64,000 nucleotides of DNA from positions 12,873 to 76,872 of the forward strand of contig CAYTTY010000012.1 of the NCBI GenBank assembly GCA_964440935.1, written 5' to 3'. Positions within the stretch are counted from its first letter, which is position 1. Every line of letters begins with the position of its first letter. This document shows positions 35,015-60,033 of the stretch, one piece after another. The translations under genes and the position numbers were made by a program. Source of the stretch: an uncultured Ignavibacteria bacterium (GTDB lineage Bacteria; Zixibacteria; MSB-5A5; WJJR01). Under the pieces are notes generated by a model, which ran no database searches, was not told the origin of the DNA, and was given only the letters and a program-made list of their open reading frames with translations.

Positions 35015-35025
35015 TGTACCTTGTG

Positions 35026-35054
35026 GCCCTGATGGCGCTTTTTGCCATCAGGGC
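35026..35054. repeat. 29-bp hairpin GCCCTGATGGC-GCTTTTT-GCCATCAGGGC. It is an inverted partner of 35466-35494.
   Basis: Perfect 11-bp stem. The same stem with a reverse-complemented loop recurs at 35466-35494, and the flanking 5 bp on each side are also similar. Not followed by a U-tract. Confidence 0.6.
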
Positions 35055-35086
35055 TTGCGTAACTCACATTGGCTGTCACTGCGATT

Positions 35087-35397
35087 TAGAGTGAATGTCA
35101 GAAGTATTTTCCGTTTGGGATTGCGATCCGTACTGTCACCAGGGTTCCCCGCTGTCATCCCCTCGAAAGAGGGGATCCATTTTGCTTTTGGCCACCACTC
35201 ACCGTCTGAACTTGGATTCACGCTTTCGCCCTTCGGCTCGCTCAGGACAAGCGGGAATGACAACGAGTTATAGCAATTATCAAAATTCCGTTCCGGTGTT
35301 CGGGGCCGTCGCATGGCCGTCCAGGCCAGAGGGTACGGGCGAGGCGCCCGTACTGCATCGCCTTCTCAATCGGAAGATAGTTCTGAGAATCGCTCTA
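35087..35397. mobile_element. Degenerate tandem MITE-like remnants carrying IS630-type terminal repeats (about 35089-35267 and 35271-35395)
   Basis: TA+GAGTGAATGTCAGAAGTATTTTCCGTTTGGG at 35087-35119 resembles the IS left end GAGCGATTGTCA... and the RC of the MITE end at 43642-43653. TA+TAGCAATTATCAAAATTCCGTTCCGG at 35269-35300 resembles the MITE left end at 43398. TGAGAATCGCTC+TA at 35384-35397 resembles the right end TGACAATCGCTC+TA. Confidence 0.45.
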
Positions 35398-35465
35398 CAA
35401 AGCCGTTCTAGCGGTTTCTTGTGTTTTTGATATGTCTCAGTAAAGACGAAGCGTGAGTCAAGCGA

Positions 35466-35494
35466 GCCCTGATGGCAAAGAACGCCATCAGGGC
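35466..35494. repeat. 29-bp hairpin GCCCTGATGGC-AAAGAAC-GCCATCAGGGC. Inverted partner of 35026-35054.
   Basis: See 35026-35054. Together they form ~39-bp imperfect inverted repeats flanking a ~411-bp non-coding segment. Confidence 0.6.
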
Positions 35495-35520
35495 CATAAA
35501 TCTGCTCGGTGTTCCGTTTA

Positions 35521-36633
35521 GAGCGATTGTCAGATTAAATTTCCGATTGCGGCGGTTTGGCTGGTGCGTTGTGGGTTGTCGATCACATCGAGAATGGCGT
35601 GATCCAAGCGTTCGAGTAATTGGTCGAGATGGCGACAGATATAGTTGTTGAACCAGGTGGCCTTCATCACCAGCCAGATGCGTTCAATCGGGTTGAGATC
35701 GGGGGAGTAGGGCGGCAGATACATCACCTCCCACCCGTGCCAATTCAACGATTTGCGTTTGTGCCAGGAGGCATTGTCGACAATGAGGATGTTGCGTCGT
35801 CGCTGGACGGTCACCGATCGGTCTGCTTCATTGAGGAACGCTTGGAAGGTGTCCGAGTCCGAATGAGACGCTTCGATGGCAAAGAACTCGCCGGTGCGGG
35901 GACAGACCATCCCCATGACATTCATCCGCAGGTGATCGCCGTTTTTGGTGCTGCGGGTCTTGTGACCCTTTTTGTCCCAGCGCCGTCGGGGTCGCGGATC
36001 CCCCTCGAATCCCGACTCGTCGGCAAACCATAACTCGACGTCGGGATCCTGGCTAAGTTCCTGTAGCTGTTGCCGAAACGCCTCCCGCAGAACCTCATCC
36101 TGACGATCCGGCCACGGTTGTGGCACCTTGAGGGCAAAGCCCTGCCGATGGAAGAATCGCACCACCGTTTCATAGCTGCACTCCACCTGATAGGTCTCAG
36201 AGAGGTAGCCGTGGAACGCCTTGGCGGTCCAAAACGTGCGGTCCGCCTGTTCGGGGTCGCTGATCAGACGGGCGAACTGCGTGGCTTGTTCGCCTCGAAG
36301 AATCGCTGTCCGACCGGGACGTTTCTGCACAATCAACCCATCCACACCGCGGTCGTTGAATGCTTTAACCCAACTGCGCAGCGACCGCTCCGTCACCACC
36401 AACGCCGCGCACACGGTGTCACGCGGTGTGCCGGCCAGCAGAAACTGAATCGCGGTACAGCGGACCGACGTTTCGGGTGAACCCACACGCCCCGCCCCCT
36501 TCAACTCCTGGATACTCGCGTTCTCCGGATTCGGCTCGAGTGCGCGGCGTGCCATGAACACACCATGCCGTAATCACTTACAAAAGTCTAGAATTTTCTG
36601 GCCCCAAACGGAAAATATTTATGACAATCGCTC
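35521..36633 (-). mobile_element. IS630-family (Tc1/mariner-like) insertion sequence, 1113 bp, with terminal inverted repeats GAGCGATTGTCA...TGACAATCGCTC and a TA target-site duplication (35519-35520, 36634-36635)
   Basis: The left end TA|GAGCGATTGTCAGATTAAATTTCCG and right end CGGAAAATATTTATGACAATCGCTC|TA are inverted repeats. A TA duplication is the IS630 hallmark. The element contains a single DDE transposase ORF. Confidence 0.8.
35530..36561 (-). CDS. IS630-family DDE transposase
   Basis: 343 aa. N-terminal HTH region, then D..D..E: ...LWFADESGF..., ...NILIVDNASWHK..., ...YLPPYSPDLNPIERIW.... The stop codon lies inside the left TIR. Confidence 0.85.
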   Translation of the reverse strand: MFMARRALEPNPENASIQELKGAGRVGSPETSVRCTAIQFLLAGTPRDTVCAALVVTERSLRSWVKAFNDRGVDGLIVQKRPGRTAILRGEQATQFARLISDPEQADRTFWTAKAFHGYLSETYQVECSYETVVRFFHRQGFALKVPQPWPDRQDEVLREAFRQQLQELSQDPDVELWFADESGFEGDPRPRRRWDKKGHKTRSTKNGDHLRMNVMGMVCPRTGEFFAIEASHSDSDTFQAFLNEADRSVTVQRRRNILIVDNASWHKRKSLNWHGWEVMYLPPYSPDLNPIERIWLVMKATWFNNYICRHLDQLLERLDHAILDVIDNPQRTSQTAAIGNLI

Positions 36634-37037
36634 TATTCCTCGTCAAGGACGTCATCAGCGGTGAATGCGCCGCGTACGTGCGTGATGGCACGATGACCCG
36701 AGGAGTCCTGTGGGGCAACGGTGACGACATCGAAGCGGTAGCCGCCGGGCATGTCGGGGGCGTTTTCGATATAGGCGCCGGCGGCGCGGATGATGGCCGA
36801 TTGCTTTTGGGGTGTGATCCATTCCAGTGGATCACCAAAAGAGACCGTGCGCGCGGATTTGACTTCGACAAACACAATCGTTTCACCATCGCGAACGATC
36901 AGATCGATTTCGTTACGGGTATACGGTGAACGCCAGTTACGGGACAGAATCAGACAGCCATTCGATTCGAGATAGCGCGCGGCTTGCTCCTCTCCATCGC
37001 GTCCGGTGTGCTGGTGATGGTCGGGAGACGGGGTCAT
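36633..37037 (-). CDS. yraN: YraN-family (UPF0102) endonuclease
   Basis: GEEQAARYLESNGCLILSRNWRS...EIDLIVRDGETIVFVEVKSR matches the YraN signature. It lies downstream of rnhB, as in the conserved rplS-rnhB-yraN arrangement. The stop codon (RC of 36633-36635) is built from the IS end base plus the TA duplication. Confidence 0.75.
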   Translation of the reverse strand: MTPSPDHHQHTGRDGEEQAARYLESNGCLILSRNWRSPYTRNEIDLIVRDGETIVFVEVKSARTVSFGDPLEWITPQKQSAIIRAAGAYIENAPDMPGGYRFDVVTVAPQDSSGHRAITHVRGAFTADDVLDEE

Positions 37038-37048
37038 TGTTGTGGCTC

Positions 37049-37705
37049 TTAGATTTCCAGACGATTCTGTTGCCAGTCGCGCACAGGTGTGAATGACTTA
37101 CGGTGTATCGGAGACGGACCCAATCGCGATAACGCGGTGAGGTGTTCCGGCGTCGCGTACCCTTTATGACGCACAAACCCGTATCCGGGAAACTGCCGCT
37201 CGTAATCTTCCATGATGCGGTCGCGGATTTCTTTGGCAATGATCGATGCAGCGCCAATGGAGATGCACAACTTGTCACCGTCGACAATGGCGCGTTGGGG
37301 TATGTCCAGATTGGGAATGCGGAACTTACCGTCAACCAAAACCGCTTCGGCTTTCACCGGCAGCTCATCGAGTGCGAGACGCATTGCCGTGTAGCTGGCC
37401 TGCAGGATGTTCTGGGAATCGATCCCGGCCGGATCGACCAGACCGACTCCCCATGAGAGCGCTTTCTCACAGATATTAGGATACAGAGCAATGCGTTGGG
37501 CTGCACTGAGGAGCTTGGAATCGGTGATGCCGGTCCCGTCGAAATCCTGCGGCAAGATCACGGCGACTGCAACAACCGGACCGGCTAACGGACCGCGTCC
37601 GACTTCATCGACGCCGGCCACACAGCGCCAGCCGCGATCCCAGAATTGGCGTTCGTACTCCCAGCGATCGGATTGGACATTCTGCCTGGGGACCCTCTGC
37701 GCCAT
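37049..37705 (-). CDS. rnhB: Ribonuclease HII
   Basis: VAGVDEVGRGPLAGPVVAVAVIL...DSKLLSAAQR... shows the RNase HII catalytic motifs. Confidence 0.85.
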   Translation of the reverse strand: MAQRVPRQNVQSDRWEYERQFWDRGWRCVAGVDEVGRGPLAGPVVAVAVILPQDFDGTGITDSKLLSAAQRIALYPNICEKALSWGVGLVDPAGIDSQNILQASYTAMRLALDELPVKAEAVLVDGKFRIPNLDIPQRAIVDGDKLCISIGAASIIAKEIRDRIMEDYERQFPGYGFVRHKGYATPEHLTALSRLGPSPIHRKSFTPVRDWQQNRLEI

Positions 37706-37727
37706 GCCAATGTCCAGCGTCCCGTGA

Positions 37728-38084
37728 TCAGGCTCCGGTGTCGGCTTTCTTTTCTTTCACCCGCGCGGCCCGTCCACGCCGCTGACGCAGATAGTAGAGT
37801 TTGGAGCGACGGACCTTGCCTCTGCGCATGGTTTCCACCTTGGCAACATTTGGCGAGTGAAATGGAAAGACACGTTCCACGCCGATGCCCTGGGAGACTT
37901 TGCGCACGGTAAACGTGGCGCCCGCGCCGGTGCCGCGCTTTTGGATGACGGTCCCCTGGAACACCTGGATACGTTCCTTGTCGCCCTCTTTGATGCGGAC
38001 GTGGACCTTGACCATATCCCCCGGGGCGAAATCCATTGTCCGGTCGGCCGGTGTGTTCAGTCCGACAGTTGTCAGATCAACCAT
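37728..38084 (-). CDS. rplS: 50S ribosomal protein L19. The start is taken at MVDLTTV (38084), overlapping the trmD stop; the longer ORF to 38183 is unlikely.
   Basis: ...[84 protein letters not shown] matches L19 throughout. Confidence 0.85.
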
Positions 38085-38871
38085 GGTCATTCTCCTTACG
38101 TGTGTCTTGATCATGCGACCGACCGGTCGCGGGTGAATCGGACATCGCGGCGGGAGCCGACTGGCTCCCGCCGCTCTTATCATCGGCCTCTGAACTCAGC
38201 AGTTCAGGCCGGAATCGTTCGGTCGTCAGACGTGCCTGCTGCCGTCGCCACGCGCGCACATTGGCGTGATGCCCCGAGACCAGAACCGACGGTACTTCTA
38301 ACCCCCGCCAACTCTGCGGACGCGTGTAATGCGGTGCACCGAGACCGTTGATGACAAACGAGTCTTCGCGTCCGGAATCATCGTTGCCTAAGAATCCGGG
38401 CAGGCGACGCGCGACGGCATCGACGATCACCATCGCCGGCAATTCGCCTCCGGTGAGCACATAGTCGCCAATACAGAGACGCAGGGGCTTGAAGTACTCA
38501 AAGATGCGTTCATCAATTGCTGTGTAATGCCCGCACACAAAGATCAAACGGTTGCTCGTGGTTAACGAGTTGGCCTTGTCTTGATCGAACAGCTCACCGC
38601 GCGCGGCGGGGATGATGATCGTCGCATCGTCATCGCCGCGGATCGCCTCAATGGCACGCGCAATCGGCTCGGCCATCAGGATCATCCCGCCACCGCCGCC
38701 AAAGGGTGTGTCGTCGACCGAACGATGCGGATCATCGGTGAAATCGCGCAAGTCGTGCACATTGACCGACAACACACCACGCTCCAATGCGCGCGCCATC
38801 ATCGACTCGCGCAAAAAGCCGGTAAACATACCGGGAAATGTGGTGATGACGTCAATCTGCATCGTGCTCAA
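38077..38871 (-). CDS. trmD: tRNA (guanine37-N1)-methyltransferase TrmD, with a ~40-aa low-complexity C-terminal tail
   Basis: [13 protein letters not shown]...[17 protein letters not shown]...[14 protein letters not shown] is the SPOUT/TrmD pattern. Confidence 0.9.
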
Positions 38872-38880
38872 CCTGCTGCC

Positions 38881-39393
38881 TTACTCTTCCTCGATCATTC
38901 CCGGAATCGGAGCTATCGTCATGATGCCGGATTCGAGGTCGATGTTGGTGATGAATTCCGTGACCGCCGGAATCATGAACTCCCGATCGTTGTGTTGACA
39001 GACATAGACGTCGTTGGCCGCATTTTCAATAATCTCGATAATCTCGCCGACGTCTTCACCTTCGGTCGTCTGCACCCGCAAGCCGATGATCTGATCGTGA
39101 AAGAACTGCCCTTCCGGCAGTGTGACCCGCTCGGATTCGTCGATAACCAGTTCGCCATTGATCCACGGACGGATATCTTCGGGTGATTCGAACTCCTCGG
39201 TTTCAATCAGCACAAAGCCCTTGCCGGATCGCACGCCGGTGATGTGCACGGTCATCGACTTGTTGCGCGCCGTGAGAGTCACCTCGTCGAGTTCTTCGAA
39301 GCGCTCCCAGTTGTCCGCGTATGGCCAGAGGCGAAACACCCCTTCGACCCCGTGGGCCTTGCCGATGCGTCCCAACGCGACGGGGTCATTCAT
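38881..39393 (-). CDS. rimM: 16S rRNA processing protein RimM
   Basis: LGRIGKAHGVEGVFRL (RimM N-terminal) plus a PRC-barrel C-terminus. Lies between rpsP and trmD. Confidence 0.8.
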   Translation of the reverse strand: MNDPVALGRIGKAHGVEGVFRLWPYADNWERFEELDEVTLTARNKSMTVHITGVRSGKGFVLIETEEFESPEDIRPWINGELVIDESERVTLPEGQFFHDQIIGLRVQTTEGEDVGEIIEIIENAANDVYVCQHNDREFMIPAVTEFITNIDLESGIMTIAPIPGMIEEE

Positions 39394-39423
39394 GATCGTG
39401 CGGTCCCGGGTGTGGGTCCGACC

Positions 39424-39942
39424 TTACGACTCAGATTTCTCCTCGGTGGGCGCCTCGGTGGGCGCCTCCGTGGCTTCCTCACCGCCCTCGGCCGGCTTTT
39501 CTGCCTCAGCGGCCTTGGCTTTCTCAGCGGCTTTGGCTTCTTCAGCCTTCTTGGTTTCGTCAGCCGCTTTCTTGTCGGCCTCTTCCTGGGCGACCATCTT
39601 GGCCCGCTCTTTCTTCTTGGCTTTGTGCGGGCGCTCGGTAATGGCGTCTTTGACGTCCATCCCCGTGATGTCCTCGCCGTTCTGCGCCTTTTCCCAAATC
39701 TGCGTCATGCCGCACTGGCGAAAGAGCGTGTTGACCGTATTCGACGGGGTCGCGCCTTTGCGCAACCAGTCGAGTGTACGCTCGACATTGACCTTCAATT
39801 TTGCCGGACGTTCGAGCGGACGGTACCAGCCGAGCACTTCGAGAAACCGGCCGTCTCGCGGCATGCGCGAGTCGGTCGCCACAAAGCGGTACATCGGCTG
39901 TTTCTTCTTGCCCATGCGGCGCAGACGAATCTTAACGGACAA
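39424..39942 (-). CDS. rpsP: 30S ribosomal protein S16 with a ~85-aa Lys/Ala/Glu-rich C-terminal extension
   Basis: MSVKIRLRRMGKKKQPMYRFVATDSRMPRDGRFLEVLGWYRP is the S16 core. The tail ...KKAADETKKAEEAKAAEKAKAAEAEKPAEGGEEATEAPTEAPTEEKSES is in the same ORF. Confidence 0.85.
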   Translation of the reverse strand: MSVKIRLRRMGKKKQPMYRFVATDSRMPRDGRFLEVLGWYRPLERPAKLKVNVERTLDWLRKGATPSNTVNTLFRQCGMTQIWEKAQNGEDITGMDVKDAITERPHKAKKKERAKMVAQEEADKKAADETKKAEEAKAAEKAKAAEAEKPAEGGEEATEAPTEAPTEEKSES

Positions 39943-40066
39943 TGTGTTACCTCCCTACTAATGACCTATGATGTCTACAAACTGAATTCGCGTTTGCTCA
40001 CCGTTCTTTGTAGCGCGGCCGCCTCGGCCGCTCTGAGCAGGCGAGGCGCCTGCACTACAATAATCG

Positions 40067-41389
40067 CTATAACGGAAACGGCATCTTCGGCATGCCCTTC
40101 ATACCGCCCTTGCTCATCTGTTTGATCATCTTCTTCATCATCTGGAACTGCTTGAGCAGCCGGTTGACGTCCTGAATCGTGTTGCCGCTGCCCTTGGCGA
40201 TGCGCATGCGGCGCGAACCGTTGAGCACCTCCGGATGACGGCGCTCGTACGGTGTCATCGAGAGGATCATCGCTTCCATGCGGGCCTGCGCGCGTTCGTC
40301 GACCTGCATCCCCTTCAACTGCTTGCCGACACCGGGGATCATGCCGAGGACCGATTCGAGCGGACCCATCTTCTTCAACTGCTGCAACTGCTCATAGAAG
40401 TCTTCGAAATCAAACTGGGCTTTGCGCAGTTTGTCTTCGAGCGCGGCGGCATTGTCCTCATCAAAGTTCTCTTGTGCCTTTTCGACGAGCGAGACAACGT
40501 CGCCCATGCCCAGGATGCGCGAGACCATACGGTCGGGATGGAACGGTTCGAGCCCGTCGAGCTTCTCCCCCGTCCCGACAAACAGGATCGGCACGCCGGT
40601 CGCTTTGACAACGGATAGCGCCGCGCCCCCACGGGCGTCGCCATCGATCTTGGTGAAAATGACACCGTCAATGCCGATGCGTTCGGCGAATGATGACGCC
40701 GATGTAACCGCGTCCTGACCGGTGAGTGCATCAGCGACGAAGAACGTTTCGGTCGGCTCGACCTTCTCTTTAATCAACGAGACTTCACCCATCAATTGGT
40801 CGTCGATATGCAACCGTCCGGCGGTGTCGAGGATAATCAAGTCGGCGCCGGCGTCGGTTGCGGTCTGTACACCCTTGACAGCCACGTCGACCGGGTTGCC
40901 ACTGCCGGTGTGCACGTCGACACCGACCTGCTTACCGAGTGTTTTGAGCTGTTCGATGGCGGCGGGACGTTGCAGGTCGGCGGCAATCATGTGCGGTTTG
41001 CGTCCGGCTTTCTTGAAATGCATCGCGAGTTTGCCGCACGTGGTCGTTTTACCCGATCCCTGCAAACCGACAAGCATCCAGATCGTTGGCTGCGGTGACT
41101 TGGCGAAGTGCACCGGACGGTGCTGGCCGCCGAGCAGATCGACCATCTTGTCGTAGATGATCTTGATCATCTGCTGGCCAGGGGTGACCGACTGCAGGAC
41201 CTTGTCGCCCATGCTCTCGGTCTGCACGTCGTCGAGGAACGACTTGACGACCTTATAGTTGACGTCCGCCTCGAGCAGGGCGCGACGCACCTGCTTGAGC
41301 GCATCTTTGACGTTGGCCTCGGTGATCTTACCGTGGCCCCGGAGCGTCTTAAAGACACTGTCGAGTCGGTCGCTCAGATTCGAAAACAT
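40067..41389 (-). CDS. ffh: Signal recognition particle protein Ffh
   Basis: NG domain with GLQGSGKTTT, DTAGR and the SRP54 pattern. The C-terminal M domain is Met-rich (...KKMIKQMSKGGMKGMPKMPFPL). Confidence 0.9.
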   Translation of the reverse strand: MFSNLSDRLDSVFKTLRGHGKITEANVKDALKQVRRALLEADVNYKVVKSFLDDVQTESMGDKVLQSVTPGQQMIKIIYDKMVDLLGGQHRPVHFAKSPQPTIWMLVGLQGSGKTTTCGKLAMHFKKAGRKPHMIAADLQRPAAIEQLKTLGKQVGVDVHTGSGNPVDVAVKGVQTATDAGADLIILDTAGRLHIDDQLMGEVSLIKEKVEPTETFFVADALTGQDAVTSASSFAERIGIDGVIFTKIDGDARGGAALSVVKATGVPILFVGTGEKLDGLEPFHPDRMVSRILGMGDVVSLVEKAQENFDEDNAAALEDKLRKAQFDFEDFYEQLQQLKKMGPLESVLGMIPGVGKQLKGMQVDERAQARMEAMILSMTPYERRHPEVLNGSRRMRIAKGSGNTIQDVNRLLKQFQMMKKMIKQMSKGGMKGMPKMPFPL

Positions 41390-41773
41390 GCTACTTCACC
41401 CTCAAGGACATCCGTACGGGGACGCCTTCGACTACAAACGTTAAAACAGCGCCGACCGATGGACCTGGATCGGCGCAAATGGCTAAGGTACAAAAGATTT
41501 GGAGGAAATCAATTGGGATTGTGGGGGGTGAAGAAGGGCCAAGTGTCAGCCACCCAAACGGCTCCGACAGCAATCCATTGTATCACAACATCTTAGATGC
41601 CATCGATACTGTCATCCCCGCGAGTATCTCGTCCAGCGAAGTGGACGAGATGCGAAAGCGGGGATCCAGTGGCATTGGGGGAGAGGCGACCCCTCATCTC
41701 CCGGGTTTCACCCTGCAACGATTCGGCCGCTTCCGCTGTAGAATATTGCCCTGCGGGATATTGAAACTGGAAG

Positions 41774-41780
41774 AGGAGGA
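41774..41780 (+). promoter_or_regulatory. Shine-Dalgarno AGGAGGA, 8 nt upstream of the degP ATG
   Basis: AAGAGGAGGATTTCAGGATG. Confidence 0.5.
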
Positions 41781-41787
41781 TTTCAGG

Positions 41788-43263
41788 ATGATACAGACTC
41801 GTGACCGATTCGGTGGACGGTTGGCGGCGGTGCCGGCTCTGTTGGTGGTGGTGGTAGTTATCTCGTTGATGGCGTTACCGTCGCCGGCGCAGGACACCGA
41901 CCGGCCGACACCATTGGTCGGCGAATACGAAATTCGCACGCTGCGCGACCTGAGCGATGCGTTTATTCACATTTCCGAGACGGTGCGGCCGACAGTGGTG
42001 ACCGTGTCGACCGAACGCATTGTTACGCGCCAAATGGTCAACCCGTTCGGCAACCATCCGTTTTTCGAACGCTTCTTCGGGCCGCAACCCGATCAGCCGG
42101 AACAGCGCGAGTTTCGTCAGCGCGGATTGGGCTCCGGTGTGATTGTCAGTCAAGACGGTCTCGTGCTGACCAACAACCACGTGGTCGCGAATACCGACAG
42201 CATCTTCATCCGCACCTACAATGAACGCCGCTTCACCGCAACGATTGTTGGCCGCGACGAAAAGACCGACATCGCGGTCCTGCGCATCGATGCCGATGAT
42301 CTGACACCGATTGCCATCGGCGACAGCGAAACATTGAAAGTCGGCGAAATCGTGATGGCGATCGGCAGCCCGATGAGCGAGAATTTGGCGTACACGGTGA
42401 CACAGGGCATTGTCAGCGCCACCGGGCGGTCGAATGTCGGGCTGGCTGATTACGAGGACTTTATCCAAACCGACGCGGCAATCAACCCCGGCAACTCGGG
42501 CGGACCGTTGGTGAATCTCGACGGTGAGCTGGTCGGCATCAATACCGCCATCGCTTCGCGCACCGGCGGTTTCATGGGCATCGGCTTCGCCGTCCCGGTG
42601 AATATGGCGATGAACATTATGACATCGCTGGTTGAAGAAGGACGCGTCGTGCGCGGCTGGCTGGGCGTCGTGATTCAGGACGTCAACGAACAGCTCGCGT
42701 CGGCGATGGGACTCGATGAAATCACCGGTGTGCTGGTCGGCGACGTGACACCCGACAGCCCGTCGGACAAAGCGGGAGTCGAAGCGGGCGATGTCATCAC
42801 CGAACTGAACGGACGCGAGGTCGAATCGGTGCAGGACCTGCGCAATTCGATTGCGGCGACACGTCCCGGAACCGACGTCACACTCACGGTCATTCGCGAT
42901 GACCAAACGCAAAACATCACGGTGACACTCGGCGAGCTGCCGGGCGACGGTGCAATCGCCGCGGCCACTGGTTCGCTCGAAGAACTGCTGGGGTTTTCGT
43001 ACAACACGCTCACCAATGCGCTGGCTGAACGGTACGGGATTGATGAGACGTATCGCGGTGTCGTGGTCACGTCGATCGATCCGGTGAGTGCGGCGTATCG
43101 CGCGGGCGTGCGCGAAGGCGACTTGATTCATGCGGCCGAACGTATTCGTGTCGAAACCGAAGAGGAATTCAACAACGCGCTCAGCGGCAAAGACAAAGGT
43201 GACAATGTGCTGTTGCACATCAATCGCGGCGGGCAGAGTTTCTTTGTGGCGTTTGCGCTGTAG
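41788..43263 (+). CDS. degP: Periplasmic serine endoprotease DegP/HtrA with two PDZ domains
   Basis: The start at 41788 gives a signal peptide (LAAVPALLVVVVVISLMALPSPAQ). Trypsin-like catalytic triad context (...TNNHVVAN..., ...DIAVLRID..., GNSGGPLVN), then 2 PDZ domains. The upstream ORF extension from 41479 is not protein-like. Confidence 0.85.
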   Translation: MIQTRDRFGGRLAAVPALLVVVVVISLMALPSPAQDTDRPTPLVGEYEIRTLRDLSDAFIHISETVRPTVVTVSTERIVTRQMVNPFGNHPFFERFFGPQPDQPEQREFRQRGLGSGVIVSQDGLVLTNNHVVANTDSIFIRTYNERRFTATIVGRDEKTDIAVLRIDADDLTPIAIGDSETLKVGEIVMAIGSPMSENLAYTVTQGIVSATGRSNVGLADYEDFIQTDAAINPGNSGGPLVNLDGELVGINTAIASRTGGFMGIGFAVPVNMAMNIMTSLVEEGRVVRGWLGVVIQDVNEQLASAMGLDEITGVLVGDVTPDSPSDKAGVEAGDVITELNGREVESVQDLRNSIAATRPGTDVTLTVIRDDQTQNITVTLGELPGDGAIAAATGSLEELLGFSYNTLTNALAERYGIDETYRGVVVTSIDPVSAAYRAGVREGDLIHAAERIRVETEEEFNNALSGKDKGDNVLLHINRGGQSFFVAFAL

Positions 43264-43397
43264 TTGTTCACCGGCATTGTCATTCTGAACGGAGTGAGGA
43301 AACTGCTGCTTGCGCGTGGCGGGGGTATCAAGAGCAGATCCCTCGCTTCGCTCGGGATGACACATTGATCTTGGTACACCGGGCATCGGTTGTTGTA

Positions 43398-43653
43398 TAG
43401 CAATTGTCATAAATCCTTTCCGTTTGGATCAGGGTGCCACGGGCCTTTAGGGGTGTGTCGCACCCCCCCCGAGAATCAGAGCCTTCGGGAGGGCGAGCCT
43501 CCCGGCGAGCCGCAACGGCATGTTCCACACGGCGGCTCGGCGGGAGCCTCGCCCTCCCCAGTCTGAGGTGATGATAGACAGCAGGTTTTTCAACACGCCC
43601 CTTTAGGCCCGTGGTATTCAAATACAAACGGACAATACTTCTGACAATAGCTC
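43398..43653. mobile_element. Non-autonomous MITE (256 bp) with IS630-type ends TAGCAATTGTCA...TGACAATAGCTC, flanked by a TA duplication (43396-43397, 43654-43655)
   Basis: The left end TATAGCAATTGTCATAAATCCTTTCCGTTTGG closely matches the RC of the IS630 right end (36604-36635). The right end CAAACGGACAATACTTCTGACAATAGCTCTA matches the IS right end. The interior has no ORF and forms long hairpins, for example GGGAGGGCGAGCCTCCCGGCGAGCCGC...GCGGCTCGGCGGGAGCCTCGCCCTCCC. Confidence 0.6.
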
Positions 43654-43829
43654 TAGTGTCGTGTCCCGGAAATAGCTTAAAGAAGTCGCTTCCACGCCGC
43701 GTGCCGTCATGCGCCCTCGCATGACGGCTATCTTCTTTCCGGACAAGGCGTCACCCGAGGGCGGGTGACGCCACGGGGTACAATTTCGTATAGAAACTGA
43801 TGAACCGTATTTCTGGGACACGACACTAG
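43652..43829. repeat. 15-bp inverted repeat CTAGTGTCGTGTCCC...GGGACACGACACTAG enclosing two perfect 11-bp-stem hairpins (43703-43728 and 43747-43772)
   Basis: GCCGTCATGCG-CCCT-CGCATGACGGC and GGCGTCACCCG-AGGG-CGGGTGACGCC lie between the 15-bp inverted repeats, immediately abutting the MITE's right end. Confidence 0.5.
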
Positions 43830-43835
43830 AACGGT

Positions 43836-43864
43836 CGCCTCGGCCGTTTGGTCCGGCCGAGGCG
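43836..43864. repeat. Perfect 11-bp-stem hairpin CGCCTCGGCCG-TTTGGTC-CGGCCGAGGCG, containing the CGGCCGAGGCGGCCGC motif also found at 40015-40031
   Basis: Lies 3' of the PASTA gene (minus strand) but has no T-tract. It shares a 16-nt GC-rich core with a hairpin between rpsP and ffh. Confidence 0.45.
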
Positions 43865-43927
43865 GCCGCTCTACATGTTGTCGAGATCTGCGTGCGGACA
43901 GGAATGACCGCACCGCTTACGATCGAG

Positions 43928-44704
43928 CTACTGATCCCGCGAAATGACCAGATCGATTTCGATACCGGAATCGAGTTCTTCGCCGGGGGCGTGCGACTGG
44001 GCAATGATGGTGCCAGGAAGGAGAGTGGTATCATAGCGGCGGTCGACGGAGCCGATGAGCAGTGCACGGTCGCGGAGGATCTGGCGGGCTTCTTCGATAT
44101 TGAGACCGACGAGATTGGGACACCAGGTGCTGCGCCGATCGGTCTGTTCATTGACGAGGAGATTGACCACCCCGCCGCGCGGCAGACTGCTGCCGGCGCC
44201 GGGGATGGTGCGTACCACGGTGCCGACCGGAACCGGATTCGACGTCGTATCGCGTTCACCAGCGCGTCCGCCGACGTGCAAACCCGCCTGCGTCAGAATC
44301 AGCTCGGCCTGGCGTGGTGTGTAGCCGCGCACATGCGGAACGTCAATTAATTCCGATCCACGTGAGACGACCAAACTGAACACACGTCCGTCTTTGATCG
44401 GTGCACCGGCCGGTGGACGTTGTTCGAGAATGGTGCCGTCGGGACTGTCGGGTGAGAACCGTCGCTCGGCAATCTTCATCGACGATCCAATGGCTTCGAG
44501 CCGCTCTTGTGCGGCGTGTATCGACTGATTGACCAGGTCGGGCGCGGGAAATTCATCGCCGTGACGGGTGTACCACGGCATGACAATTTCATCGACAATC
44601 AACAGCAACGCGAACGCGGCGATGATCGGTACAACGATCCACGTGACGGGAATGCGAACCCACCGCGGCTGCCGTGTCCAGATGTCGCGGAGTGTGCCCA
44701 TCAT
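43928..44704 (-). CDS. Membrane-anchored PASTA-domain protein (3 PASTA repeats, no kinase or transpeptidase domain)
   Basis: N-terminal TM (WIVVPIIAAFALLLIV), then three ~65-aa repeats with the PASTA pattern (PDLVNQSIHAAQERLEAIG..., IDVPHVRGYTPRQAELILTQAGLHVG..., PNLVGLNIEEARQILRDRALLIG...). Confidence 0.65.
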   Translation of the reverse strand: MMGTLRDIWTRQPRWVRIPVTWIVVPIIAAFALLLIVDEIVMPWYTRHGDEFPAPDLVNQSIHAAQERLEAIGSSMKIAERRFSPDSPDGTILEQRPPAGAPIKDGRVFSLVVSRGSELIDVPHVRGYTPRQAELILTQAGLHVGGRAGERDTTSNPVPVGTVVRTIPGAGSSLPRGGVVNLLVNEQTDRRSTWCPNLVGLNIEEARQILRDRALLIGSVDRRYDTTLLPGTIIAQSHAPGEELDSGIEIDLVISRDQ

Positions 44705-46098
44705 CAGTCGGCGGACTTCCGTCGCAGCCGGGCGGCAAAGACACCGTCGAGACCATCGAATGGCGGCCGTGACGCCACGTACCCTTCCTTGGTTACAAAC
44801 TGCCCGGGGACATACGGCGCCGCCGATTCCAATTCGAACTCGTCGTTGGCTTCGAGGAAGGAACGAACGGTGAATTCGTTCTCTTCGGATGTGATTGTGC
44901 AGGTGGCGTACACAAGGACACCGCCGGGCGTGACGTGATTACTGGCCACACTCAGCCAGATGCGTTGCGAACGGGCGAGACGCTCAATATCCGACTGTGT
45001 CTTCACCCAGCGGACTTCGGGATTCTTCGGCAATGTGCCCAGCGCCGAGCAGGGCACATCGGCGAGCACCCGTGGCGCGGTGCGATCCCCGAGTGAGGAG
45101 ACATCGGCCTGAATCGGCAGCATGTTATCGGCGCCAAACCGCTGTTTATTCTCTTCGAGCCGTTTCAACCGTTCGGCACTGCGGTCAACGGCGAACACTT
45201 GGCCCTCGGGTCCGATCATCTCAGAAATCAACAACGACTTGCCGCCGGGCGCAGCAAACAAATCGATCACTTGATCGCCTGGTTGAGGGTCGAGTAATCG
45301 GACGACCAATCCTGACGCCGGATTCTGCACCCAGCCGATCGGTTCAGAATAGAGTGGAGAGTCCGACGTCAGCGCCGCCGTCTCCACTTCCACGTATTCA
45401 TCGAACACCGGATGGGATTTGCCGGAGAGCAGATTCGCGCCGGCCAACAGTTCATTCAGACGCGCGAGACCGGGACCGTCCCTGGCAAGCCGGACATAGT
45501 GATGCGGCGGCGCGTTCGCCCAGCGGGCAATACGATCGATGTGCTCTTCACCGTACTTGGAGATCAGCATTTTGATCAGCCAGTCGGGCATGGAGAGCTT
45601 CTCGGCCGGCGGTGCGCTATCGAGTTGCTCGTGCAGTTGATCGCGTTCACGTGCCGCGCGGCGCAACACCGCGTTGACCAATCCGGCAATCCCCTGGTGC
45701 GAGACGGCCTTGGCCGCTTCGACGGCGGTCGACACAGCCGCATGGGGCGGTATACGATCGCAATCGACCACCTGGAATAGTCCCATCCGCAGAACCCACT
45801 GCACCGGTTCTTTCAACCCTTCGAATTTACCGTCAGTGAGATAATTGGCGCGGTGATCGAGCACGCGCAAACGGCGCAGCACCCCGGCGGCCAAATGAAC
45901 GGCCAGCGCGCGATCGCGTGCGGAGAGCCCGGCCAGCCCGGCGCTATGATCCCACATTTGTTCCAGACGTTCGCCCCCCTTCATGGCGTTGACTGTCAGA
46001 TCATACGCCACCGCACGCGCATTGTTCGCACCGAAGGGGTTAATATTCTTCGTTTCGGGGCGTCGGTTTCGGCGTCCCTGCCGCGAGTTCCTTACCAT
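44704..46098 (-). CDS. rsmB: 16S rRNA (cytosine967-C5)-methyltransferase RsmB (Sun), with an N-terminal NusB-like domain
   Basis: The NusB-like N-terminus is followed by a SAM methyltransferase core with FAAPGGKS and DVPCSALGT (RsmB/Nop2 motifs). Confidence 0.8.
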   Translation of the reverse strand: MVRNSRQGRRNRRPETKNINPFGANNARAVAYDLTVNAMKGGERLEQMWDHSAGLAGLSARDRALAVHLAAGVLRRLRVLDHRANYLTDGKFEGLKEPVQWVLRMGLFQVVDCDRIPPHAAVSTAVEAAKAVSHQGIAGLVNAVLRRAARERDQLHEQLDSAPPAEKLSMPDWLIKMLISKYGEEHIDRIARWANAPPHHYVRLARDGPGLARLNELLAGANLLSGKSHPVFDEYVEVETAALTSDSPLYSEPIGWVQNPASGLVVRLLDPQPGDQVIDLFAAPGGKSLLISEMIGPEGQVFAVDRSAERLKRLEENKQRFGADNMLPIQADVSSLGDRTAPRVLADVPCSALGTLPKNPEVRWVKTQSDIERLARSQRIWLSVASNHVTPGGVLVYATCTITSEENEFTVRSFLEANDEFELESAAPYVPGQFVTKEGYVASRPPFDGLDGVFAARLRRKSAD

Positions 46099-46185
46099 GA
46101 GTCACCTTCCAGTTGCGAGCACCGGAAACCCCAATAGATGTGCGTCTGTCGCCGGTCCCAAGCGAGCACGCACTGTATCTAGTTG

Positions 46186-47907
46186 TTACGGCAGGCCGGG
46201 GAGGTTCATCCCCCGGTCTTTGGCAAATCCGACTGCTTCATCGTACCCGGCGTCGACGTGGCGCATCACCCCGGTCCCGGGATCGTTGACCAAAACGCGC
46301 GACAGGCGGCCGTCGGCGTCCTCCGATCCATCGGCGACGATCACCATGCCGGCGTGGATCGACTGGCCCATGCCGACCCCTCCCCCATGGTGAATCGATA
46401 CCCATCCGGCGCCGGAAACGGCATTGAGCAACCCATTGAGTAGAGGCCAGTCGGCCACAGCGTCGGACGTATCTTTCATGCCCTCCGTCTCGCGATTCGG
46501 TGAAGCGACCGAACCGCAGTCGAGATGATCCCGACCGATGACAATCGGCGCCGAGATCTTTCCGTCGCGCACCAGCTTATTGATGATCAAACCGAACTTG
46601 TCGCGTTCGCCATACCCGAGCCAGCAGATGCGTGCCGGCAATCCCTGGAACTTGACTTTCTCGGAGGCGAGACGAATCCAGCGACACAAGGGTTCATTAT
46701 AGGAGAATTCACGAAGGATTACGTCATCGGTGACGGCAATATCCTTGGGGTCGCCGGAGAGCGCCACCCAGCGGAACGGTCCTTTGCCATAGCAGAATAA
46801 CGGACGGATATATGCCGGCACAAATCCGGGATACTCGAACGCGTTTTCGTAGCCTGCTTTCTGTGCCTGTCCGCGCAGATTATTGCCGTAGTCGAATGCA
46901 ATGGCGCCGGCTTTCTGCATCGCCACAATCGCCTGGCAATGCCACGCCATCGAATCGAACGAACGACGGATGTACTCGTCGGGATCCTCGACGCGCATTT
47001 GTGCGGCCTCGGAGACAGACAGTCCCGACGGCACATAACCGTAGAGTTCGTCATGCGCCGACGTCTGATCGGTGACGACATCCGGAATGACATTGCGCTT
47101 GACCATTTCAGGAAGAACGTCAGCGCAGTTGCCGACCAACCCGATCGACAACGGTTGCTTCTTTGCAACGGCGTCGTTCACCCAGTTTAGTGCTTCATCG
47201 AGAGATGATGTCTTGCGATCACAATACGCGGTCTTGATGCGGCGGTCGATACGCGCTTCATCGACCTCGACAACCAACGCGATGCCGCCGTTGAGAGTCA
47301 CCGCCAACGGTTGCGCACCACCCATGCCGCCCATCCCGCCGGTGAGCACCCATCGACCGGCAAGGCTGCCGTCGAAGTGACGGGTGGCCAGCGATGCGAG
47401 TGTCTCGTAGGTGCCCTGCAGGATGCCCTGTGTGCCGATGTAAATCCAGGATCCGGCGGTCATCTGGCCGAACATCATCAGTCCAAGAGCATCGAGCCGG
47501 CGGAACTCCTCCCAGTTGGCCCAATTGCCAACGAGGTTGGAGTTGGCAATCAGAACACGCGGCGCCGACGGCTGTGTCTTGAATATGCCGACCGGCTTGC
47601 CCGATTGGACCAGCAGTGTTTCGTCGTTTTCCAAATCCTTCAGCGACGCGATAATCGTGTGAAAACAGTCCCAGTTGCGTGCGGCCTTGCCGGAGCCGCC
47701 GTAGACAATCAACTCGTCGGGCTTCTCGGCCACATCCGGGTCGAGATTGTTCTGGATCATGCGGAACGCGGCTTCCTGAATCCATCCCTTGCACGTACGT
47801 TCACTGCCCCGTGGCGCGCGGACGGCAGTGGCCGGCGCGCCGGCTGCCGTTGTCATTGCATCTGGTGTTGTGGCCATGGCTGTACTCCTCAATTGCAGAA
47901 CCGTCAT
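46186..47907 (-). CDS. hutU: Urocanate hydratase
   Basis: 573 aa. Matches urocanase along its full length (...[22 protein letters not shown]...[13 protein letters not shown]...[13 protein letters not shown]...). Confidence 0.9.
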
Positions 47908-50198
47908 GCGACTCGCGACGCGGTCACACGTTCATCCATGAGCGTGGGAATACAATCGCGATGCAGAGCGCGCAGTTCTTCGATCGATTCGTCGATGAAC
48001 GGTTTGATGACGAATCGTCCGCCCTCGGCGACCCGGCCAATAATGGTGAGCGGGATGTACGCGTCCTGTGTGGCTTGTTCGATCACATGACGATTGGCAT
48101 CGTCAAACGATATAACGACACGTGACTGAGATTCACCGAAGAGGTAGGCGTCGGGACGAATATCACCTACATCCACCTCGCAGTCAAGACCCCAGAGATG
48201 ATCGTCGCGGCCGATGCACGATTCAAACAATGCGACCGCCAGACCACCGTCAGAACAGTCGTGCGCCGAGGCGATCCACTGATTCTGAATCGCGCGCAAG
48301 AGGAACTGTTGGACGGCCTTTTCCCGCGCGAGATCGAGGGCGGGGACCTTACCGGTCGTCAATCCGTAGATCGTCTTCAGGTATTCCGAAGCGCCAAGTT
48401 CATTCCGCGTTTCCCCGATGACCGCGATGTAGTCGGTCGATGATTTGAAGTCGTTGGTGGTGATATGGCGAACATCGGTGATCTTGCCAATCATGCCGAT
48501 GGTCGGCGTCGGGTAGACGGCGCGCGGCCCCTCTTCGTTGTAGAAACTGACATTGCCGCCGGTGACGGGTGTCCCAAAAAAGCGGCAGGCCTCGCCCATA
48601 CCACGCACACATTCAGCGAACTGGTAGTAGACGTCGGGCTTGTACGGATTGCCAAAGTTGAGGCAATTGGTAATGGCCAACGGTTGCGCCCCGACACACA
48701 CAAGATTGCGTGCGGCTTCGGCGACGGCGATTTGCGCACCGCGTCGGGGATTGAGATAGCAATAACGGCCATTGCCGTCGGTTGCAGCGGCCAGGGCGGT
48801 GTTGGTCTTGCGGATTCTCAAGACGGCGGCATCCATACCTGGGCCGATGGCGGTATTGGTTCGAACGCTGGTATCGTATTGGTGATACACCCAGCTCTTG
48901 TCGGCCAGATTGGGTGACCCCACCAGACGTTTCAGTATGTCCCCGTAATTGTCCGGTTGTGATATGCTATCCTGATCCCAGGACTGTGCGGTGTCGATGT
49001 AATCCGGTTTCTTTTCGGCACGTTTGTATTGTGGAGTCCGACCACCAAGTGCCAGCGCATCGGCGGGAACGTCGACTTTGCGTTCACCGTTATGATCGAC
49101 GATGAAGCGGCCGCCTTCAATCACCTGCCCGATTCGCTCCGCCTCCAATTGCCACTTTTTGAAAATGGCGATGACATCATCCTCCCGTCCCGGGCGAACG
49201 ATTACGAGCATGCGCTCTTGCGATTCGGACAGAAGAATCTCGTATGGCGTCATCCCCTCTTCGCGCACCGGGACCCGTCCCGTGTCGATATGCATCCCCT
49301 GTCCGCCACGGAAAGCGGTTTCGGAACACGAGCAGGTAATGCCGGCCGCGCCCATATCCTGGATGCCGACGAGCAAGTCGGCGTCGATCATTTCGAGCGT
49401 CGCTTCGAGTAGGAGCTTTTCGGTGAAGGGATCGCCGATTTGCACCGACGGGCGGCGCGATTCAGATTCCTCGGAGAGTTCCTCCGATGCGAAGGTGGCG
49501 CCATGGATGCCGTCGCGTCCGGTCTTCGAACCAACGATGTAGACCGGCGCGCCCACTTCGGATGCCGACCCGCGGGCGATCTTGTCGGTCTTGACCATAC
49601 CGATCGCCATCGCGTTAACGAGCGGGTTGCCGGTGTACGAATCCTCAAAGATCATCTCACCGCCGATGGTGGGGACACCAAAGCAATTCCCGTAACCGCC
49701 GATACCTCGCACCACGCCATCAACCAAAAACCGCACACGCGGGTTGTCGAGACTGCCGAAACGCAAAGAATCGAGGCTCGCAATAGGACGCGCACCCATC
49801 GTGAATATGTCACGCAAAATGCCGCCGACACCGGTCGCGGCGCCCTGATACGGCTCGACCGCCGAGGGATGATTGTGCGATTCGATCTTGAAGACGACCG
49901 CGAGACCGTCATCCCAATCGACCACACCAGCATTCTCCTCCCCGGCCTTGGCCAGCATCATTGGTCCTTCTTTGGGAAGCGTCTTGAGGAGAACAATCGA
50001 ATTTTTGTAGGAACAGTGTTCCGACCACATGACCGAAAAGACGCCGAGTTCGGTGTAATTCGGTTCTCGCCCAAGGATCGACTTGATCATCTCGTATTCG
50101 TCGGGTGTGATCCCGTGCTGGGCGACAAGCTCTGGTGTGACAGTGGGTTCGTGCATCGGCTCTTCCTGAGAGTCAAACTCTAAATCTATGCACCCCAC
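47904..50198 (-). CDS. purL: Phosphoribosylformylglycinamidine synthase subunit PurL (FGAM synthase II)
   Basis: 764 aa. Duplicated AIRS/AIRS_C (PurM-like) domain architecture and length typical of small PurL. Its start overlaps the hutU stop. Confidence 0.9.
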
Positions 50199-50306
50199 CG
50201 GGAATAGACAATCCCGTTATGGGCATTCTGACAGGAAATAGAAGCCGGGCTGTGAGTGCCCCCCACTCCCGGCTTCTCAGACAATAAATGTATCGATTTC
50301 AGGATA

Positions 50307-53300
50307 TCAGAAATCGGCGCCCAGTGAGAAGTAGTACTTCGGATGGGCAGCCACCACGTCGAGATCCGTCCGCCACGCCTGATCGAACCGTAACAGTACA
50401 AACCCCAGGTTGGCCCGCAATCCGTAGCCGAAGGCCATCTTGATGTCTTCGAGGTGGAATCCGTTGGCGCTGCTGGTTCCGCGGAACTTATCGTTGTCGC
50501 TCCACGCCGAGCCAACATCGGTAAAAAGCACACCGCCGATCTGGCTGAGCACTAACGGTAGTGGAAAGCGCATGGCGAAGTAGTCGACGAATGGAAAGCG
50601 GAATTCGGCATTGAGCAAGCCGAATCGCGATCCGTCGATTTCGTAGTAGTCATACCCTCGGAACGGGGTAATCAACTGGCTGAAATACAATCCCTCCACG
50701 TCGTACACACTCGACCGGCTAATCGTTGATCCGATCCAGTTGCTCATGCCGCCCAGATAGAATCGTTTCGGATTGCTGCCTCCGGACACACCGCCGGCCA
50801 GACGCAGGGCCACGCTGTAGCGGCCACCGAGACGGGCGTACTGACGGAAGTCGAAGGTCATCGCCCGGTAGCTGATCCCGTCGGAGAACCCGTCGGGAGC
50901 GGCCTCCAGCGACACGCGATAACGCCGGCCGCTTTTCGGGGCGGTCATCCCCCAGGTCGAATTGTCGTGAACCATTGACAATACGCCGACGGCAACGCGA
51001 TCCGACCGGTCGCGTTCGGGCGGTTCCGGCCGATCCACGAACCGCCGGTCGATAAACACCATCATACCGTCGAGTTGCAGCCGTGTGAACTTGGAGAACG
51101 GTCGGGCAACATTCGCCTGGAAACCGTACGTGCGGTCACTGAACAGCTTATTGTTGAAATTCAAATAGAAGTACTTTGAGTGGAACAAACCGATGCCGTA
51201 GTCGATCCGCTTCGGCGTGTACCGGTAATACACTTGAATGTTCGACTGATCGATTGTGTTGATGAGATCAGTGGCAACGAAGACCTGGTGATCGCCCAGG
51301 TAGTCGGAGATGACAAAGAACGACTGTCCACGCAACCCGAAGAAGGTGTCATAGCCAAGGCCACCGGTTACCAGATCGGGCGTGAATTTCGGTGAGTAGT
51401 CGTGGACCTCGTATTCGGTCAGCACGGTGTCGGCTTGGGCAACCATTGTGGCCGATGTGGTGTCGTCCTCCGCCACTGCCATCTCATCAAGGTCTTCCGG
51501 CGTCGGCGGACCGAGCGGCTGGCGGGCCGCGGTCGTGTCCCCTGACGTTGCCGAGGTGTCGTCCTTGATCGGCCGGTGCTCGTACGGAGTACTCGCCGGC
51601 TGGACGAACGACGTGAACTCCAAGTCTTCCGAGAGCAGCTTGGGCGCGCGTTCTTCCAATTCGACCTCACGACGAATGACGAACGCACTGGAATCCTCAC
51701 CGGATAGCCGTCGTACAAATGCCGTGGGCGCGAGATTCTTGCCCGGCTCCGCCTTGGGTCGAATGTCTGTCATCAAAAACACATCGAAACCACCGCGGTA
51801 GAATGCGGAGAATGCGATCTGCTGTCCATCGGGAGACCAGGACGGGCTGAAGCAACCGGAAATGGCATCGGTGACCGGAAACGGCTCCGCACCGAGCGAG
51901 TCGATGATGTACAGATTATAGATACCGTTCTTGTTGGAGACGAAGCAGATTCGGTTCCCGTCGGGCGCATACACCGGTGTTTTGTCTTCGGCATCGTCGT
52001 TTGTCAACGGATGCACCGTCCGCGTTACCAAATTCGCTTCGAAGACGTTGTAGCGGCCGAATGCGAACGTGGCCGGATTCTGATCGTCAGGCAGCATCAA
52101 TGGCGTGGTGGCGTCGGACGGCCGGTCGGCGGCGAAGATGATGCGATCACCGTCGGGATGGAAATGAGCATCCTGCTCATCGTAACGGTCGTTTGTGAGC
52201 CGAGTCACCGATTCGGTCGCGAGATCGACGAGATAGAGATCGTTTTGATCGTGGCGGTTCGCGGTTACGACAATCGACTTGCCGTCGGGAGAAAACGACG
52301 GCGACCGCATTGATTGAAAGCCGAAGCGCAACGTTTGATCGTCACCGCTGCCATCGACATCGAGCAACATCAAGGCGTCGTGGCCGCCCGACTTGGCAAT
52401 CAGGGCGAGCGTGGAACCGTCGGGAGAGAAGTCCATACCTGACACAAAAGAATGCAGTGATTCAAAGCGATCGGTCCGTCCGCCTTTGATCACTGTGCCC
52501 AAGTGTTCGCCGTCAACGGTCGAGATGATTTGCACTTCCGTATTGTCGGCTTTCTCAGTAAGAATGGCGATGCGATTACCGCGGGGCGAGAACACCGGTT
52601 TCTCATTGAAATACGAACCGTCTTCTTCGTGGTCGGTAAGCTGGCGCGCGAACAACTCCGGTTCTTCGCGAATCGAGATTTCGGGCCAGTACTCCTTGCG
52701 CAGGCGCTTTTGCCACTCCTCATTGAACTCTTCGATACCCTTCCCGATCGTCTTTTTCAAGGAGTTGTCCATAGTGAGTTCAAACCGCCCCTTGGACAAC
52801 ACCTCTGCGATTTTCTCTTCACCGTAACGTTCGGCGAGATACAGGACCGCGGACTGCCCTTGCTTGTAGGCGAGGTAGCCGCCGACGTAATTCAGCGGGA
52901 TGAGATAGTTGTGCACGGTGGCGTCGCGGATGACCATATCGGCGAACGTGTCCCATCCGTGGCGAGAGGAATACTCCGCAAATCCCTCGGCAAACCAGAG
53001 CGGAACATTGAAAAGCGCCTGCCGTGAGAAGATCGAGCCGACGCCGCTGAACAGCATGTCGAAGGTCACGGCATGCGTGAGTTCATGGTGCAACACATGG
53101 CGGAAGTCCTCGTACGATCCGGTGAACGGCATCACCATGCGGTTCTTAAACGATTCGGTGAACCCCCCGACCCCCTCTTCCAGCAGGCTGCTGGTGACGT
53201 TGGTCTGTTGGAATTCGTTGTGCGATTGGTAGATGATCGCCGGGACGCGATTTTGCAGCGAGTAGTTCAATTCCTCGGAGACTTGCACGTACGCCGATTC

Positions 53301-53510: not shown

Positions 53511-53644
53511 TCACTCCTCATGTGGTCAGGTACGAACGCCCGGCGAGGAAGGTCGATCCGCAACCCCGAATCTGCCATATTGAACCAGCCAAGTGGTGGA
53601 TTGTTCCGCCTCCATTGATCCATAGGGACTACACCTGAGGCGGA

Positions 53645-59670: not shown

Positions 59671-60033
59671 AGATATTATACGGAGAAAACGTGTGGTGGT
59701 AAACCGTGCTGAGCGGAGATGATGTAAGAGAATGAGGGACTCACAACCTCGTGTAGGTGCGGCGAAGAGCCGGACCTACGCGATGCACCTATGGGTTTTT
59801 CAACACGCCGCAAGGGGTGCGTTGAAAAAGGTGCTTGATTGCTGAGAACATGCATTTGTAGGGGCGTATTGAATACGCTCCCTTCACGTAACGGTAACAG
59901 TGACAGGGCGCACTCTCAGTACGTCCCTACGAATGATCGTCCCGTCAACATGCGTTAGGATTGCGCCTCAGGCCTTTTCAACACGCCCCAAGGTCAGTGG
60001 TACCCCGCAAAAGAAAATCACATCGATTTGAAC
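59671..60033. repeat. Hairpin-rich intergenic region containing two copies of the dispersed motif TTTTCAACACGCC (59797-59809, 59975-59987). A third copy lies at 43587-43599.
   Basis: Hairpins include GGTTTTTCAACACGCC-GCAAGG-GGTGCGTTGAAAAAGG (59796-59829) and GGGGCGTATTGAATACGCTCCC (59861-59882). No ORF is present. Confidence 0.5.

Follow-up and report, generated by a model that had tools for sequence, protein, structure and literature searches.

RUP of Streptococcus pneumoniae is a short non-coding element that has terminal repeats resembling those of IS630-Spn1 and a TA target, and its mobilization in trans has been proposed (PMC2229807). Its insertions show a tendency to lie within or beside other mobile elements (PMC2229807). 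In the related case of ISY100, the transposase binds the terminal repeats through its N-terminal HTH, is the only protein needed, and inserts the element at TA with duplication of that dinucleotide (PMC2170065).

We analyzed a stretch of 64,000 nucleotides from a Zixibacteria genome (hereafter the window), in which the gap downstream of a degP/degQ-type gene contains a 256-bp element, MITE_A. RUP together with IS630-Spn1 is the closest described case, being like MITE_A in its terminal repeats, its TA target and its mobile-element neighbours. We regard it as very likely that MITE_A is a non-autonomous element (MITE) of the IS630/Tc1-mariner type, probably composite in structure and presumably moved in trans by an IS630-family transposase. 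The element is of a known kind, an IS630-related MITE like RUP; what is mildly interesting is its probable nested composite structure, together with a recurrent junction of an IS630-type end, TA, and an end of the type found in the adjoining element MITE_C.

Termini shared with a resident IS630-family element

MITE_A starts 132 bp after the degP/degQ stop, within a cluster of small elements in the 664-bp gap that separates the convergent degP and PASTA-domain genes (Table 1). The first-pass annotation had described a 256-bp element downstream of degP with TA on both sides, and these features could be read directly from the coordinates and flanks. The two end sequences quoted there were found in one exact occurrence each, at 43398–43427 on the plus strand and at 43625–43653 on the minus strand. 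The same annotation held that no transposase is present; accordingly, the only ORFs in the element were one of 99 aa on the minus strand and one of 58 aa on the plus strand, and a Pfam search of both returned no family match.

Table 1 Positions of MITE_A, its parts, its relatives and the flanking genes. Positions refer to the window unless a contig is named.
Feature	Position	Strand	Remarks
MITE_A	43398-43653	.	256-bp non-autonomous IS630-type element without transposase
Left TA	43396-43397	.	Presumed target-site duplication; same as TA at 43654-43655
Right TA	43654-43655	.	Presumed target-site duplication; common to MITE_A and adjoining MITE_C
MITE_A left terminal inverted repeat	43398-43427	+	TAGCAATTGTCATAAATCCTTTCCGTTTGG
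MITE_A right terminal inverted repeat	43624-43653	-	GAGCTATTGTCAGAAGTATTGTCCGTTTGT (read on - strand)
Left shell-hairpin arm and first TTTA copy	43437-43449	+	Arm CCACGGGCC; TTTA at 43446-43449
Inner element, F2 family	43450-43601	.	152 bp; ends GGGGTGTGTCG... and ...CAACACGCCCC; contains the 27-nt inverted repeat
Near-perfect inverted repeat, 27 nt	43487-43513 / 43532-43558		18-nt loop; 93% complementary
Second TTTA copy and right shell-hairpin arm	43602-43614	+	TTTA at 43602-43605; arm GGCCCGTGG
MITE_A empty-site junction, as predicted			...GGTTGTTG-TA-GTGTCG...
MITE_C, different family	43656-43826	.	171 bp; terminal repeat GTGTCGTGTCCCGGAAATA; TA at 43654-43655 and 43827-43828
degP/degQ-type serine protease ORF	41479-43263	+	Trypsin_2 and two PDZ; stop ends at 43263
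PASTA-domain gene	43928-44704	-	Convergent; closes the intergenic region
IS630-family insertion sequence, full length	35521-36633	-	1113 bp; TA at 35519-35520 and 36634-36635
Transposase gene	35530-36555	-	341 aa; HTH and DDE_3 (Pfam)
MITE_B	35271-35395	.	125 bp; same-family termini; TA at 35269-35270 and 35396-35397
Solo IS630-type terminus	35089-35118	+	GAGTGAATGTCAGAAGTATTTTCCGTTTGG; TA before; 26/30 to IS end
One-ended IS630-type terminus	18327-18356	+	TA before; subterminal sequence like one Z1 end
Z1	L009 1765-1942		178 bp; TA-flanked; 139 bp after degP stop

The window also carries a full-length IS630-family insertion sequence (IS), and its transposase gene, located approximately 7 kb from MITE_A, is apparently intact and of full length relative to its homologues. 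The 341-aa product matched the Pfam family DDE_3 at 8.6e-37 over profile positions 2–145 of 146, as well as HTH_33, HTH_32, HTH_29 and HTH_23. More than 2000 homologues were retrieved at E ≤ 1e-60; among the matches listed, the majority likewise had 341 aa and the majority were on contigs of 1.1–1.5 kb, as is expected of a collapsed repeat. The IS exhibited 92% nucleotide identity with an IS copy from another sample (contig L013).

Comparison of the termini, scored as ungapped identity over 30 nt, revealed that the left end of MITE_A matched the IS end upstream of the transposase gene (36604–36633) at 26/30 positions and that the right end matched the same IS end at 25/30, whereas identities with the other IS end were 20/30 and 22/30. 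The two ends of the IS itself shared only 23/30 with one another, and the right end of MITE_A shared 25/30 with the solo end at 35089–35118. As a control for chance similarity, every 30-mer on either strand of the window (approximately 128,000 in total) was scored against the IS ends; values of 20/30 or higher were obtained only for members of the terminus family, and all other 30-mers scored 19/30 or lower. Beyond MITE_A and the IS, four further family termini in the window exceeded 19/30. The resemblance of the MITE_A ends to the TIRs of the resident IS630 copy over ~30 bp, as initially annotated, was thus upheld by alignment scoring (26/30 and 25/30 against a chance maximum of 19/30). A BLAST search of the left end against the window gave E = 8e-4, and the left end together with its TA agreed at 30 of 32 positions with the upstream terminus of a sister IS (contig L014). 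Because both ends of this sister IS begin with TAGCG, the T-for-G difference at the outermost base of the MITE_A left end represents normal variation of the family. TA flanks were common to MITE_A, MITE_B, the IS, the sister MITE Z1, and the IS copies in L013 and L014.

The sequence shared with the IS stopped approximately 30–37 bp in, at one end, and the interior of MITE_A showed no similarity to the IS. The proposed derivation from the IS630 element consequently stood for the termini (~30–37 bp), but not for the interior, and these comparisons supported a non-autonomous IS630-family MITE that shares its terminal repeats with the resident IS. An origin as a simple in-place internal-deletion derivative of the IS was rejected, since the interior has nothing in common with it.

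By analogy with ISY100, the 341-aa DDE transposase would use its N-terminal HTH domain to bind the ~30-bp terminal inverted repeats of MITE_A, with the protein presumably supplied in trans by full-length copies such as that at 35521–36633. The transposase would then excise the element by double-strand cuts at its ends, and the element would reinsert at a TA dinucleotide and duplicate it; duplication of a TA target upon insertion would account for the TA on each side of MITE_A. The order of nesting events in the composite is a step that we infer in addition. MITE_A sits in a convergent intergenic gap, where insertions would do little harm and may be neutral, and no effect of the element on degP or the PASTA-domain gene is indicated. 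The significance of the locus is modest: Zixibacteria are an uncultured phylum represented largely by metagenome bins, and the locus documents an IS630-family IS there along with MITEs that match it.

Fold and probable nested structure of MITE_A

The whole of MITE_A folds as one near-perfect stem-loop. The RNA fold reached −140.6 kcal/mol, compared with −85.3 ± 4.9 for shuffled sequences (z −11.3), and the DNA fold reached −76.8 kcal/mol (z −10.0); the long stable stem-loop with a 27-bp near-perfect inverted repeat reported in the first-pass annotation was therefore confirmed. Separately, 20 nt of one arm of this inverted repeat (CTCGCCGGGAGGCTCGCCCT) recur exactly at 15118–15137 (BLAST E = 1e-5 within the window). 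This copy is intergenic and distant from any IS630-type end, which hints that the hairpin itself may be a dispersed motif.

A fold of such stability (z −11), located directly downstream of a gene, would also fit an RNA or DNA structure under selection for a role in the host, either as a 3'-end stabilizer or terminator of degP or as a REP/BIME-like hairpin cluster, with its IS630-like ends being incidental; REP-like hairpins do recur between genes in this genome and its relatives. However, any element made of inverted repeats folds as a stem-loop automatically, and the terminal repeats of MITE_A, with TA beside them, match the IS far better than expected by chance. A terminator consensus scan of positions 43100–44000 detected no hairpin-plus-T-run inside 43398–43653 on either strand, so the earlier suggestion that the MITE acts as a terminator downstream of degP found no support; the nearest terminator-like matches were a weak one at 43378–43390 and another at 43703–43728, inside MITE_C. 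Similarly, an Rfam search of the whole window at the gathering threshold gave no family match, and the permissive threshold added only sub-threshold microRNA-precursor matches, as any long hairpin gives. Selection for a host function thus appears very unlikely.

From the outside inwards, each long arm of MITE_A (63 nt, 75% complementary) comprises the IS630-type terminus and a 10-nt spacer, then CCACGGGCC (left arm) or GGCCCGTGG (right arm), TTTA, and the inner end. The TTTA copies (TTTAGG) flanking 43450–43601 form a direct repeat, not an inverted one. When 43450–43605 was removed, the 100 bp left over formed a perfect stem-loop in which TTTA is the loop (z −7.4), and the same hairpin is present uninterrupted twice in the sister MITE Z1, as CCACGGGCCTTCAGGCCCGTGG (L009 1804–1825; L009 is the contig carrying Z1) and as CACGGGCCTCAAGGCCCGTG. 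The consensus terminus of the F2 family, to which the inner element belongs, is GGGGYGYGTTGAAAAAGG, and F2-type termini without IS630 ends were found at 59814–59989 of the window (a 176-bp element), at L009 2122–2249, and at approximately 11725–11742 of L010, a contig from a distant relative. The direct TTTA repeats, the hairpin restored on deletion, its uninterrupted counterpart in Z1, and the F2 termini elsewhere together make it fairly probable that MITE_A consists of a 100-bp IS630-type shell with a 152-bp F2 element inserted in the TTTA loop of the shell hairpin. In L009 2102–2273, the hairpin arms and F2 ends constitute one continuous 33-nt inverted repeat; accordingly, the arms could instead be part of a long F2 terminus captured between IS630 ends, rather than a target hairpin. 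Read as a shell with a nested F2 element, the MITE_A composite illustrates neatly, on a small scale, how nested insertion can supply the interior of a MITE.

Members of the F2 family were observed at 59740–59989 in the window, at L009 2102–2273 and at L010 11680–11745, with variable internal hairpins such as GTAGGTGCGGCGAAGAGCCGGACCTAC. The copy at 59814–59989 is a complete one of 176 bp, and a partial copy lies directly before it.

A probable further copy, the sister locus and neighbouring repeats

Within the 64-kb window, the exact family of MITE_A was represented by one copy. A search of its open minus-strand frame against 5.8 billion protein clusters returned one match, P0245 (95 aa), a predicted ORF from another NCBI contig (8,013 bp), with 45 of 46 core residues identical. 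The match runs across the junction of the inner element and the shell (PLKARGT). The end peptide of P0245, QIQTENTSDNRSKA, back-translates to ...CAAACGGAAAATACTTCTGACAATCGCTC-TA, that is, an IS630-type end followed by TA. Back-translation of NRTGILTIAI-K, in the N-terminal part of P0245, gives one more IS630-type end directly beside the TA of GGGCC-TA-AAGGGG, and judged from the predicted protein this looks like a further nested insertion. The composite appears to exist in at least two places and may have moved as a unit at least once, the second copy being deduced from the predicted protein P0245. For genome annotation, the 99-aa and 58-aa ORFs of MITE_A and entries like P0245 represent translated repeat, not genes. 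The plus-strand ORF matched only an unrelated repetitive 1011-aa protein among 1.84 billion representative proteins.

A scan with a 21-base degenerate terminus pattern of a collection of species-representative genomes, which evidently does not include the source genome, yielded a single match, Z1. A metagenome scan with the terminus plus CCACGGGCC revealed no copies of the family; all six matches were chance occurrences inside coding sequence. With regard to the ongoing element activity proposed at first, the extra composite copy (P0245, a predicted ORF) and the related MITEs in the window and in the sister genome support it weakly, and the loci in L009 and L010 yielded no empty site.

The one-ended terminus at 18327–18356 had no recognizable partner end within ~250 bp, and next to it lies a subterminal sequence, TTGAGAAAGAGCGAGACT, that is similar to one of the Z1 ends; a truncated MITE is the probable explanation.

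The contig with Z1, WJJR01000496.1, belongs to a Zixibacteria bin, and its degP is 88% identical to that of the window in nucleotides and 94% in protein. The gene order is as in the window: degP, gap, PASTA gene, rsmB. Z1 and MITE_A share CTTTCCGTTTGnATnnGGGTGCCACGGGCCTT, their orientation is the same, and their distances from the degP stop are similar (139 bp for Z1, 132 bp for MITE_A); moreover, the degP-proximal 53 bp of the two are 83% identical, close to the 88% of degP itself. These similarities would be expected if an IS630-type insertion downstream of degP in the common ancestor with the WJJR01 genome had decayed in place, leaving MITE_A and Z1 as orthologues and immobile fossils, with nothing currently mobile. 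Other features argue against such a fossil: the spacers between degP and the element are unrelated, the flanks of Z1 being unalignable with the window (z 0.3), the interiors of the two elements are unlike, and their distal ends are of different sub-types (20/30), that of Z1 being of the MITE_B type. In addition, a near-identical core lies on a separate contig beside different sequence (P0245). We therefore consider the fossil reading unlikely and retain a mobile MITE_A, although Z1 could be an old shared insertion rather than an independent event. A search of the orthologous loci for an empty site found none: the spacer in L009 is unalignable and contains a MITE of its own, and L010 has a different downstream gene. 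The orthologous intergenic DNA was alignable only at a short hairpin beside the PASTA gene.

An independent Logan assembly of SRR7048227 was 100% identical to the window over 36160–43365 and 43815–54704. It breaks inside the IS, at 43365 (after an inverted repeat), and at 43815 (inside MITE_C), and repeats account for these short-read assembly breaks of the organism. The break at 43365 was considered as a sign of a repeated MITE_A and rejected, since it falls where a different inverted repeat (43285–43361) ends, 31 bp short of the MITE. The two breaks at 43365 and 43815 leave exactly 43366–43814 unconfirmed, and this tandem of repeats could in principle be a mis-join of collapsed repeat copies in a metagenome-assembled contig. 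A mis-join does not produce matched TA-flanked ends, however, and MITE_A is internally coherent in that its termini pair, its flanks are TA, and both shell and insert are symmetric. In the syntenic sister locus, too, the gap separating degP from the PASTA gene contains a MITE. An assembly artefact is thus extremely improbable.

The flanking gene deserves a note of its own. Homologues of the degP/degQ gene in Zixibacteria are named DegQ/Do. The ORF as called encodes 594 aa; homologues among the matches listed have 430–516 aa, the two closest having 490 aa, and these homologues cover ~72–84% of the ORF. Because the homologues are shorter (490 aa) than the called ORF, the true degP start is probably ~100 codons downstream, near 41791.

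Several other repeats were noted in the window. MITE_C has termini that match at 18/19 positions and contains two internal hairpins; it is unrelated to the adjoining MITE_A, and the TA between them is common to both. The same kind of junction, an IS630-type end, TA, and GTGTCGTGTCCCAGATATAGC (a MITE_C-type end), was also found at L013 1186–1211, beside the full-length IS copy from SRR29324593. The abutting IS630-type/MITE_C-type TA junction is consequently present in two unrelated samples, which suggests that one family may prefer inserting at the TA-G boundary of the other. The MITE_C hairpin GGCGTCACCCGAGGGCGGGTGACGCC (43747–43772) recurs almost unchanged in intergenic DNA of the distant relative (L010 4578–4603) and, judged from this recurrence, is another putative REP-like unit common to these genomes.

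The interval from the degP stop to MITE_A contains an inverted repeat at 43285–43361 (GTCATTCTGAACGGAGTGAGGAA ... TCCCTCGCTTCGCTCGGGATGAC), and a similar motif is located at 35225–35265, beside MITE_B. The Logan assembly breaks directly after the former (43365), so it is probably another dispersed repeat. Near the IS, 47-nt arms at 35021–35067 and 35453–35499 (87% complementary) are built around the hairpin GGCCCTGATGGC...GCCATCAGGGCC; they enclose the solo IS630-type end and MITE_B, and the full IS adjoins. The corresponding L010 gap, between the HAD-hydrolase and UPF0102 genes, is 211 bp long and lacks the arms, the solo end, MITE_B and the IS. The hairpin of these arms also occurs directly after degP in L010 (11506–11535).

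As a tentative and rather speculative generalization, the small elements of these Zixibacteria genomes might grow into composites by inserting into one another at common TA sites, with F2 (GGGGYGYGTTGAAAAAGG) inserting specifically into the TTNA loop of the REP-like hairpin CCACGGGCC/GGCCCGTGG and the composites being moved as units by an IS630-family transposase. If this were true, it would be one way in which MITE interiors arise out of other repeats and not as remnants of a parent IS.

Comparison with known elements

RUP differs from MITE_A in size and copy number: it is 107 bp long and has 108 copies in one genome, whereas MITE_A is 256 bp long and one further copy was found. The host phylum, Zixibacteria, is also different, and the interior of MITE_A is apparently a second, nested repeat element. 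With IS630, ISY100 and Tc1/mariner elements, MITE_A has in common its TA flanks and the termini of an IS with an HTH and DDE_3 transposase; in contrast to the IS630-family IS, it encodes no transposase and shares no sequence beyond ~37 bp at one end.

Stowaway-type MITEs of eukaryotes are mobilized by mariner-like transposases, and all that they have in common with the autonomous element is the terminal repeats and the TA target. Their interiors are unrelated to that element, as in MITE_A; however, they are eukaryotic and present in thousands of copies, whereas a single further copy was found for MITE_A. Some IS elements insert into REP sequences, and the hairpin CCACGGGCC-TTNA-GGCCCGTGG, which is REP-like and holds the inner element in its loop, recalls these insertions. 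REP/BIME sequences are short palindromes scattered over a genome and linked to a RAYT (Y1) transposase; the hairpins described here differ from them in being carried inside TA-flanked MITEs.
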